A DNA stretch of 64,000 nt from Felis catus (GCF_018350175.1 NC_058368.1:21144001-21208000), one strand, 5' to 3'; shown: positions 59,324-62,378, counted from the first letter of the stretch. The notes: generated from the sequence alone by a model not told the origin. Program-made: numbers and translations.

Positions 59324-60145
59324 AAGAGCAAGCTTACAACTAGCAGATAAATAGGTGCTAAAGATCTAATGTATAGCATAGTTATTATAGTCAATAATAT
59401 TGTAGTTAAATTTCTAAGTTGCTAAGAGACTAGACCTTCATTGTTCTCACCATAAGAAAAATAGTAATAATTATGTGACATGATAAAGGTGTTAGCTAAC
59501 ACCATAGTGCCTATCATATTGCAATATATCAATGTATCAAATCATCATGCTGTAACACCTTAAATTTACATGTTGTTATATGTCAATTATATCTCAATTA
59601 GAATAAAATTAAAAATAAAAAAAAATAAAATGTATATGGCAATGAAATGAATAACAAGGCAATCCTGGAAAGGAGCAAAAAACTGCAAGGTTTAAAGCAC
59701 TAGCTCTCAAGACCCATTTTATTAAATAAGGCAGAGTGGTATTGACTCAAGGATATGCAAAGAGACCAATGAAAGGGACTAGGACCCAAAAACAGATCCA
59801 TAAAATATGGATGCCTGATTTACAACAAGGATAGCACTGCGATGCTATAGGGAATGCATTTTTTTTTCAATCAACAATGTTGTAAACAATGTTGGGTCCA
59901 CATAGAAAAATATAAATCATAACCACTACTTCATACCATAAATAAAAATTAATTCCAGACCTATTGTGTATTCAAATGTAACAGCTAAAACAAAAGCTTT
60001 TAGAAAAAAAGAGAACAAATTATTTTTCTGTCTTTGAAATGGGCAGAGTCTTTTAAATAGACTTCCCAAAAGTGCTAACTATAAGGAAAAAATTGATAAA
60101 GAATACTGAGAATTAAGAACCTCAGTTCATCAAAAGACACCATTA

Positions 60146-60420
60146 CCATATGACAAATACCATGATTTCACTCATACAAATGAACAAAGAAAAAAAGAGA
60201 CAAACAAAAAAAGACTTAAATATAGAGAACAAACTGATGGTTGCCAGGTGGAAGGGAGGTGGGGGGATAGGAGAAATAGGTGAAGGAGATTAAGACTACA
60301 TTTACTGTGATGAGAATTGACTAATGCAGAGAATTGTTGGATCACTATATTGTACACCTAAAACTAATATAACACTGTATGTTTGTTATACTGGAATTTC
60401 AAAAATAATGGTGTTTTTTA
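60146..60420 (+). mobile_element. Short L1_Carn-type 3' end
   Basis: TSD acaccatta. tcactatattgtacacctaaaactaatataacactgtatg. Confidence 0.85.
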
Positions 60421-60501
60421 AACACCATTAAGAGAATAAACAGGTAACTAACAAACAAAGTGGGGAAAATGTTTACAATATATATATATCCAACAAAAGA
60501 C

Positions 60502-60902
60502 TTATGGATGGAATCGTGTCCCCCAAAAATTCGAAAGTTGAAGCTATAGCCCCCAGGACCTCAGAATGTGAATGTATTTGGAAATACGGCCTTTAAAGAG
60601 GTAATTAAAGTAAAATGAGGTCATTAGGATGGGCCCTAATTCAATCTGACTGATATCCTTGTAAGAAGAGATTAGGACACAGAGACGCAGCAGAGGCACC
60701 CATGAATAGGGGAACAACCATGTGAAGAGGCAGCAAGAGGGTGGCCATCTTCAAGACAAGGACAGGGGCCACACGGCAAACTAATCCTGCTAACACCTTG
60801 ATCTTGGATTTCTAGCCTCCAGAACTGTGACAAAGTAAACTTTGTTGTTTAAACCACCTAATCTGTGGTATTTTGTAGTGGTAACCTCAGAAAACGAATA
60901 CA
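60502..60902 (+). mobile_element. MaLR solo LTR (MLT1A/B-like)
   Basis: tatggatggaatcgtgtcccccaaa...acctcagaatgtga...ctagcctccagaactgtga...aaaacgaataca. 5-bp flank agact on both sides. Confidence 0.85.
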
Positions 60903-60933
60903 AGACTCACATCCAGAAGATGCAGAGAGCTCT

Positions 60934-61484
60934 TCCCAGAGTACCCCTGGAACCGTAACCCGTACCTCACCGGCCCCTTCTCCAAGCTTCCCCCCCTCTC
61001 TCTACCCCCCACACTTCTACCCCAACCCTCTGCCCATTTCCCTGGGCCACCTGCCCTCAGCAGGGGCAGGGGGAGGCCCTACAGCTTCATCCCTGCTGGC
61101 TGCAACAGGGGAGGGCCTGGGCCCTGAGCAGCCCCTCGGGCCTGGCAGCAGCCCTTGCCTGGCACTGCCCAGAACTGGGGGTCCAGAGGCTGCACTGGGC
61201 AGGAAGGAGGACAGCGACTCGGAGCTGGAGATCACTGATGTCAGCGGCTGCAGCTCTGACAGCGAAGGCGACGAGGGCCTCCCTGTGCCCCCCAAGGCCA
61301 AGGTGAGCAAAATGGGGAATCGGCAGCTGAACCATTGTGGGGTAAAGGATTCTGCCAGGGCGGGGCTTGGGGGGGGGGGTGGGATGCTCTGCCGTGGTCC
61401 AGTGTGCCCTCCATGTCCCGCCCAAGGCCAAGGACCTGCCCTCGGCCCCTCCTAGGACCAAGCATGTGGTCGTCCACCTTCTTC
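60934..61484 (+). pseudogene. ERFL: Non-functional inserted fragment of ERFL (ETS repressor factor-like): C-terminal CDS plus the start of the 3' UTR
   Basis: Translates, with frameshifts, as [65 protein letters not shown]...[42 protein letters not shown]...GS* (TGA 61328-61330). This matches the ERFL C-terminus as recalled. No ETS domain. GC-rich island in AT-rich L1, flanked by a 21-bp direct repeat (60913-60933 / 61485-61505). Confidence 0.85.
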
Positions 61485-62378
61485 CCAGAAGATGTAGAGA
61501 GCTCTAACAAAACAGTATGAAAACAACAGACAATATAATAAGAATAGAACAAAAAAATATGAACAAATAGTTTACAAATATAGAATATCCAGATAGCCAA
61601 TAAACATATAGATATGAAAAGTTGCTCAACTTTGGTTGATAGACTAGTTATCAGTAAAACAAAAATTAAAAACACAATATATCACCCACCAGAATGGCTA
61701 AAATGAGTCAGATAATACCAAGTGTTGACAAGGATGTAGAGCAACCAAAACTTTTATACACTGCTGAAGGAACGGTAAATCAGTACAAATACTCTGACAA
61801 ATTTTTTGCCAGTGTCACTGATAAATATAAGCATAATCTGTAATTCAGAGATTCTTCATCTAGGGATATACCCATAGAAATGTGACCATATATTCAGCAG
61901 AAGACTTGAACTAGAGTAGATATTGAAGTACTATTTACATAATAGCTAAAACCTGCAAGCTATCTGAATGCCCACCAATACTGGAATGGATTTTTAAAAA
62001 TTTATATTCACACACTGGAATAATATAGCATTGAGAATAAATTGTTCTAAAATTACATGCAATAATATGGGCAAATCCCACAAACATTGTAGTAAGCAAA
62101 GGAAGCCAGACACAAAAGAGTAAATGCTGTACATTTCCATAAAGCTCAAAATCAGGCAAAATTAATCTATGCTGTTCCTTTGGGTGTACAAGAGGGACCT
62201 ATGGGGCAATAAGGAGGATTCTGAGGTACTGGGAATTACTGGGAATGTTCTGGCTCTTGTTCGAGGTGCCAGTCACATTAGTGTGTTCACTTTGTAAAAA
62301 TTCATCAAGGTATACACTTGTGATTTGTGAACTTTTCTGTATATATGCTATATATCACTATAAAACTTTTATGAAAAT

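Follow-up and report, generated by a model that had tools for sequence, protein, structure and literature searches.

A tailless fragment of the last exon of ERFL flanked by a 21 bp target-site duplication in an old L1 element

The window, the 64-kb stretch of DNA that was analysed here, contains an insert of 551 bp (60934–61484) that is bracketed by a target-site duplication of 21 bp. The G+C content of the insert is 62–69%, compared with 27–45% in the flanks. The junctions read CTCT-TCCCAG on the left and CTTCTTC-CCAGAAG on the right, with hyphens marking the boundaries, and no run of A or T abuts either of them. The two copies of the duplication agree at 20 of their 21 bases. The sequence-only reading, in which a GC-rich, tailless insert of this length with a duplication of 21 bp had been described, is thereby confirmed. 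The features of the locus are the following.

60913–60933, no strand: left copy of the target-site duplication (21 bp), consisting of old L1 ORF2-region sequence and corresponding to the same single segment of five L1 paralogs as the right copy
60934–61330, + strand: part of the insert derived from coding sequence, ERFL residues 225–354 and the stop codon (TGA at 61328–61330), broken by four indels
61331–61484, + strand: 3'UTR-derived part of the insert, matching the initial 148 nt of the parent 3'UTR in the alignment with the parent
61485–61505, no strand: right copy of the target-site duplication (21 bp), with T at 61495
60931–60940, + strand: left junction 10-mer, 3 nt of target and 7 nt of insert
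61480–61489, + strand: right junction 10-mer, 5 nt of insert and 5 nt of target
61506–61513, + strand: A-rich flank AACAAAAC, which together with 60930–60933 gives CTCT/AA in the pre-insertion site
61506–61900, + strand: the old L1 that served as the target, 3' part of the ORF2 region, continued to the left as 60904–60933 and then, past another repeat, as ~60420–60506

The duplication reads CCAGAAGATG[C/T]AGAGAGCTCT, the variable base being C at 60923 in the left copy. When the 64-kb window was searched for the 21-mer with up to three mismatches, these two matches were the only ones found, and none of 100 shuffled sequences gave two. The right flank belongs to an old L1, for which 40 paralogous matches with 68–84% identity were scored (out of 291 candidates). 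In one of these paralogs (L011), the sequence that lies to the left of the insertions in the window runs directly into the sequence that lies to their right. Pieces of the window were aligned with five of seven L1 paralogs; the other two could not be aligned in this region and were left out. Both 21-mers map to one single segment in all five. As five paralogous L1 copies carry the segment once, the 21 bp repeat is a real target-site duplication, and the target once carried the 21-mer singly. The empty site is in this case represented by paralogous L1 copies and not by the orthologous locus.

Other sequences are found in the same old L1. A further interspersed repeat of ~400 bp (60507–60903) is located 10 bp to the left of the ERFL target duplication and is itself flanked by an imperfect 8–9 bp duplication of L1 sequence (GACTTATG and GACTCACA), a segment that is single in the L1 paralogs. 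A stretch at ~60130–60420 that ends in an A-rich tail resembles, as judged by eye, the 3' terminus of a younger L1 that would have integrated within the older one.

A search of the 2.43-Gb genome (71 contigs) with the insert as DNA query returned two places, the window and one other. The latter (G000:C39:12898855-12899395, minus strand) is on a different contig, is 91% identical and is collinear with the query over positions 1–550. Since the genome holds just the parent and this copy, a single copying event accounts for the fragment. An assembly artefact is ruled out because the copy differs from the other genomic copy by 41 substitutions and 11 gap columns and is accompanied by the target duplication. 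Twenty public sequencing runs from ten studies contain fractions of 0.83–0.95 of 110 words sampled here. These runs share one organism label, with one run being unlabelled, and no other species is found among the 20.

The reading frame of the parent exon gave 33 protein matches at E <= 1e-5. The best of these is annotated as 'ETS repressor factor like' (354 amino acids, 96% identity over 61% of the query). An Ets domain is present in the upstream exons of the parent locus (L002; E 3.1e-12), and the ERFL proteins of Panthera and Prionailurus differ from the parent last exon by one or two residues, which makes the genome felid-like. On the basis of these matches the parent is assigned as the last exon of an ERFL orthologue. 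The sequence-only reading had recognized the C-terminal third of ERFL in the translated peptide and had proposed a genome search for the parent; the sole other genomic copy is indeed the ERFL locus, and the peptide represents the C-terminal 37% of the protein, starting at residue 225 of 354 in an exon that itself starts near residue 206. The source segment (L002 2041 to 1500, 542 nt) continues past the stop codon for 148 nt of 3'UTR. That strand has a single AATAAA, which follows ~345 nt further downstream. Because the fragment falls wholly within the last exon, asking whether it spans an exon junction cannot separate an RNA from a DNA origin. A degenerate pattern for a conserved peptide, used to look for outgroup ERFL DNA in metagenome contigs, gave no matches.

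A gene with RhoGEF and PH_16 domains converges on ERFL tail to tail (L002 1–1170 and L015, G000:C39:12887355-12897354). Its stop codon is at L002 269–271 and an AGTAAA is found at 1164, ~335 nt before the source segment. The putative poly(A) signals of the two genes overlap within ~15 bp (AGTAAA at 1164 on the + strand and AATAAA at 1158–1153 on the − strand), and read-through of either gene would therefore be antisense to the other.

A run of C in the parent (L002 1680–1691) has five C in the assembly versus six in the copy (window 61283–61290), and six are likewise implied by the ERFL proteins of felids, canids and others, which end in PPKAKASKGGxGS. In the parent as assembled, the frame shifts 12 codons before the stop and remains open to L002 1413. 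The difference at 61288 is a one-base shortening of the C run in the parent of this assembly and not a change in the copy; it is either a homopolymer error of the assembly or a real change.

Over 541 aligned bases the 41 substitutions correspond to a K2P distance of 0.081. The coding part is less divergent (23 substitutions in 393 aligned bases, K2P 0.0615) than the 3'UTR part (18 in 148, K2P 0.134). Compared with the parent and with orthologous proteins, the copy has gained one base at each of 60988, 61130 and 61313, the last of these just before the TGA, and has lost one at 61151. These are the frameshifts that had been noticed from the sequence alone: one in a C run, a compensating pair and one shortly before the stop codon. 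With four frame-breaking indels and no start codon, the copy is a dead, functionless fragment. The largest indel between copy and parent lies at 61369–61386, where a G run longer than that of the parent is followed by six extra bases (61381–61386). The earlier remark that many CpGs survive is true but describes an ordinary situation, with 12 of the 21 parental sites kept and an observed/expected ratio of 0.27 in the copy versus 0.33 in the parent. A retained intron was also considered on account of a splice-like stretch (AAG-GTGAGC ... TTCTTCCCAG) and was rejected: the parent reads GCGAGC at this point, and the stretch consists of the end of the coding sequence plus 3'UTR and is collinear with the genome.

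Felid genomes change at a rate of ~2e-9 per site per year (cat and tiger being ~95.6% similar after ~11 Myr). Assuming neutrality of the 3'UTR part along both branches, the branch leading to the copy has a length of ~0.067, while the non-CpG differences give 0.04–0.05. The age of the insertion is estimated at roughly 20–35 Myr, and the one difference in 21 between the two copies of the duplication agrees with this. Felid ERFL proteins share AGP at a position where other mammals have ASS or AST, and the copy reads PIS. Here the copy has an ancestral-like T at 61039, while the A at 61036 is equivocal owing to a CpG. This weakly suggests that the copy predates the felid crown.

The breakpoints were defined by comparison with the parent. 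On the left, ...GCGCCTTCCCAGAG in the parent corresponds to ...GAGCTCTTCCCAGAG in the window. The CT with which the duplication ends (60932–60933) is also present in the parent, resulting in a microhomology of 2 nt; this CT had been predicted to precede the 5' breakpoint of the parent. On the right, the parent reads ...CCACCTTCTT-T-CC-TAACC and the window ...CCACCTTCTT-C-CC-AGAAG. Here CC (61485–61486) is common to parent and target, which again amounts to 2 nt. Position 61484 is C in the window and T in the parent, and the shared stretch would be TCC if 61484 was once T, since the target has T before CCAGA. A companion prediction, that the parent would read CCAGA just past the 3' breakpoint, fails: the parent reads T-CC-TAAC, and the identity extends over CC at most, or over TCC given that earlier T. 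The in-register 5-mers CCAGA and CTAAC that are common to source and target, and that are expected by chance when offsets are free, were not used.

The same 10-mer, TCTTCCCAGA, spans both junctions and occurs nowhere else in the 64-kb window, as the sequence-only reading had reported for the junctions; 0.21 matches are expected by chance. Nine of its letters (CTTCCCAGA) pre-exist solely at the 5' breakpoint of the parent. The right-hand 10-mer arises where the end of the insert meets the start of the target, and it depends on the C at 61484. We simulated such junctions by pairing random 21 bp targets from the window with random 551 bp segments of the parent locus. A shared word of at least ten letters spanning the junctions was obtained in 92 of 300,000 draws, and in 43 of 150,000 when a microhomology of 2 nt was imposed at both ends. 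The chance of such a word is therefore ~3e-4, for a pattern that was noticed post hoc.

The + strand has CTCT/AACAAAAC where the duplication ends on the right, i.e. a pyrimidine run followed by AA exactly at the edge, which is of the L1-endonuclease type. When random 21-mers are considered, one edge or the other shows four pyrimidines and then AA at 1.4% of 63,387 positions of the window and at 1.3% locally. The opposite edge, read on the other strand, is CTGG/AT and makes a poor site. The consensus site of L1 is given as TTTT/A (Onozawa and Aplan 2016, PMC5110952), or as TT/AAAA on the other strand (Noll 2015, PMC5322556). Compared with the extended form TT/WAAAAWW, the antisense orientation (TT/AGAGCTC) matches TT/A and two of the six remaining positions, and the sense orientation (AT/CCAGAAG) is poor. 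The second nick of L1 is placed 8–30 nt away (Noll 2015, PMC5322556), with which a duplication of 21 bp fits, and 21 bp is also near the peak of 14–16 bp given for the length of target duplications (Kojima 2010, PMC2912911). The geometry of the site fits an L1 nick on the + strand. If the 3' end ...CTCT produced by such a nick was extended as the + strand, the template RNA would therefore have been antisense to ERFL.

We favour, with about even confidence, retrocopying by an L1-type route, primed through microhomology, as the origin of this tailless piece of the ERFL last exon. An L1-type endonuclease would have nicked the + strand of the old L1 at CTCT/AA, and a second nick would have been made 21 nt to the left on the other strand, as the target site and the duplication suggest. 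One of the exposed 3' ends may then have primed reverse transcription on an RNA from the ERFL locus through pairing of ~2 nt. The end ...CTCT-3' of the first nick could have done so on antisense ERFL RNA, for example read-through from the convergent RhoGEF-PH neighbour; the arrangement of the two genes suggests that such a route exists. Alternatively, the end ...TCTGG-3' of the second nick could have primed internally on sense ERFL mRNA at CC, which would correspond to one half of twin priming. Priming on sense mRNA from the second nick is as possible as the use of antisense RNA, and it is only under one or the other of these two schemes that CTCT/AA suits the L1 endonuclease. Finally, the end of the cDNA would have been joined to the other target end via ~2 nt of microhomology, and fill-in would have yielded the duplication of 21 bp. 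The parent, the collinearity, the target duplication with its single-copy target, the missing tail, the microhomologies and the endonuclease-like site are direct observations; the RNA template, its strand and the involvement of L1 are inferred. The sequence-only reading had put forward three mechanisms, namely a microhomology-mediated templated insertion, the capture of an eccDNA and target-primed reverse transcription on antisense ERFL RNA. The evidence favours the L1-type route among these, but antisense RNA is not required for it, sense mRNA being equally possible.

Three observations support an RNA template and L1: the typical length of the duplication, its endonuclease-like edge (p ~0.014) and a source contained within one mature exon. 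Exons make up a few percent of a mammalian genome, and a random DNA donor would therefore rarely be all exon; a patch derived from RNA usually is.

The features expected of such an event have precedents. Tailless copies with target duplications, internal priming and a target complementary to the last 2–18 nt of the RNA have been described as a class, with mRNAs among their sources (PMC5322556), and microhomology at junctions of this kind has been described as well (Kojima 2010, PMC2912911). The present copy has a discernible flanking duplication (20/21, single copy in five L1 paralogs) and no oligo(A) at its 3' end, and its complementarity to the target is at the minimum of the range, with CT on the left and CC on the right. 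Several points count against the L1-type retrocopy: the site is C-rich, with CTCT in place of TTTT, and priming would have involved no A-rich sequence, the complementarity amounts to a minimal 2 nt at each end, the source segment crosses no exon junction, the first of the two priming options calls for a hypothetical antisense RNA, and the nick site for the sense orientation (CTGG/AT) is poor. The predicted accessibility of the RNA at the two candidate priming sites is unremarkable (51st and 66th percentile). The retrocopy model also takes the junction 10-mer as a coincidence, leaving it a feature without explanation, and it requires that 61484 subsequently mutated from T to C or that the parent itself was altered afterwards.

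The strongest alternative, which we nevertheless consider rather unlikely, is that the insert was copied from DNA, by template switching or by synthesis-dependent repair of a staggered break. A strand with the 3' terminus ...CTCT would have invaded ERFL, which lies on another chromosome, at CT, copied 542 nt of DNA and returned at CC or TCC. A return 21 nt behind the point of departure gives the flanking duplication without reverse transcription. The microhomology of 2 nt at both junctions, or of 3 nt (TCC) on the right if 61484 was T, speaks for this pathway, and so does an insert that lacks a tail and is collinear with genomic DNA over positions 1–550. A switch of templates by way of microhomology, followed by a switch back to the first one, is a described mechanism (PMC9578701), and it is named as a possible alternative for templated insertions (PMC5110952). 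However, the copied piece is entirely exonic, as is unlikely for a random DNA donor, and chance (1.4%) would have to account for the CTCT/AA that borders the duplication. Class 2 templated insertions are described as having no target duplication (PMC5110952), and a donor on another contig is less usual for replicative switching.

The junction 10-mer and the C at 61484 are best explained by another alternative, which we regard as improbable overall, where a template with joined or defined ends was copied slightly more than once round and the 10-mer is a terminal redundancy. Such a template might be a microDNA/eccDNA of ~549 bp whose ends had met at a CTT microhomology, or an RNA fragment, with the reverse transcriptase jumping from its 5' end back to a 3' end; the copy would then have been fixed in the germ line at a staggered break of the L1-endonuclease type. 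The two 10-mers are 549 bp apart and confined to the junctions, with the rarity found in both simulations. Moreover, the CCCAGA at 61484–61489 equals the start of the source segment while the parent continues as TCCTAA, and no later mutation of 61484 is needed. CTT precedes both putative breakpoints of the circle in the parent. The piece, with a G+C content of 66% and a length of 551 bp, is within the 200–3000 bp given for microDNA (PMC9578701), and template jumping is described for non-LTR reverse transcriptases (PMC2912911). Against this, the order of the insert is unpermuted, and synthesis has to start within ~10 nt of the circle junction, for which the chance is ~2% with a circle of 549 nt. 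The redundancy that might betray a circle junction is 6–9 nt long, of which five are target sequence anyway, and it hinges on the single base 61484. CCAGA occurs at least two more times inside the insert, where it was not used, and the statistic of the 10-mer is post hoc.

A processed pseudogene of the ordinary kind, sense or antisense, that lost its poly(A) or poly(T) tail afterwards is very improbable: old tails do decay and the copy is old (K2P 0.081 to the parent), but both copies of the duplication abut the insert, such that the loss must have been exact, the 3' end lies in the middle of the 3'UTR with no AATAAA nearby (the one on that strand being ~345 nt onward), and the duplication starts with CCAGAAG and not with A, while no T run follows its left copy, all of which bears out the earlier view that this is not a standard processed pseudogene.

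The ERFL copy is in itself a neutral, dead fragment and represents one case only, to be rated somewhere between ordinary and mildly unusual. Its value is that of a clean specimen: there is one parent, the breakpoints are sharp, the target duplication is intact and the target is demonstrably single-copy. It bears on how often the L1 machinery, or repair at nicks made by L1, writes non-polyadenylated or antisense transcripts into mammalian germ lines, on whether the second nick primes alone and on whether small circles re-enter the genome. One case cannot answer these questions; a genome-wide census of the same signature could. The insertion is also a potential presence/absence marker for feliform phylogeny. 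Should the joined-end template be the true one, the locus would hold a natural and datable small circle, or a jumped template, that was written back into a mammalian germ line.

Among known systems, the copy resembles the tailless retropseudogenes (Schmitz et al. 2004 as cited in Noll et al. 2015, PMC5322556) in lacking an A tail, in having a duplication and in being truncated relative to the source RNA. It also shares with them a stretch of a few nucleotides where the target can pair with the template for priming, and mRNAs are among the sources listed for the class. They are attributed to target-primed reverse transcription by L1 with internal priming, which in their description takes place at A-rich single-stranded stretches and at TT/WAAAAWW (PMC5322556). 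Here, in contrast, the site read on the complement of the nicked strand is TT/AGAGCTC, and priming would have taken place on a stretch that is not rich in A. With the better of the two nick sites, moreover, either the template would be antisense or the second nick would have done the priming, and the RNA origin is putative.

With a standard processed pseudogene the copy has in common that it is a non-functional exonic copy of a gene on another chromosome and that it is accompanied by a target duplication. It differs in being an internal, single-exon piece of 551 bp with no tail and no splice junction, and with a 3' end away from the polyadenylation site. In twin priming, as described by Kojima (2010, PMC2912911), a few bases at the 3' end exposed by the second nick pair with an internal site of the RNA, much as may have happened here, and the microhomology-mediated 5' attachment of truncated L1 (PMC2912911) likewise combines junction microhomologies with a duplication of normal length. 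Unlike the products of twin priming, the insert contains no L1 sequence, no inversion and no arm primed from poly(A), and would correspond to the product of one of the two priming events.

The small size, genic origin and high G+C content of the piece, the short direct repeats where a circle may have closed and the microhomology at the junctions are reminiscent of microDNA/eccDNA and of insertions of the FoSTeS type (PMC9578701). The insert is unpermuted, however, and a duplication of 21 bp with an endonuclease-like edge is not a feature given for them in that account (PMC9578701).

Finally, the locus resembles templated sequence insertions in general, in that a patch from a distant, transcribed region has been inserted (Onozawa and Aplan 2016, PMC5110952). 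Compared with the templated sequence insertion polymorphisms, the ERFL copy is old and fixed and, as far as seen, not polymorphic. Class 1 insertions likewise have target duplications (5 bp or longer) and endonuclease-like sites, but they are described as having a poly(A) tract and an upstream signal (PMC5110952). The copy is tailless with junction microhomology like those of class 2, which in the same description come without a target duplication and with junctions of the end-joining type (PMC5110952), whereas 21 bp are duplicated here. The case therefore falls between class 1 and class 2 and fits neither as defined, and it sits between the textbook categories by combining a duplication and nick site of the L1 type with a tailless insert and microhomology at both of its ends.
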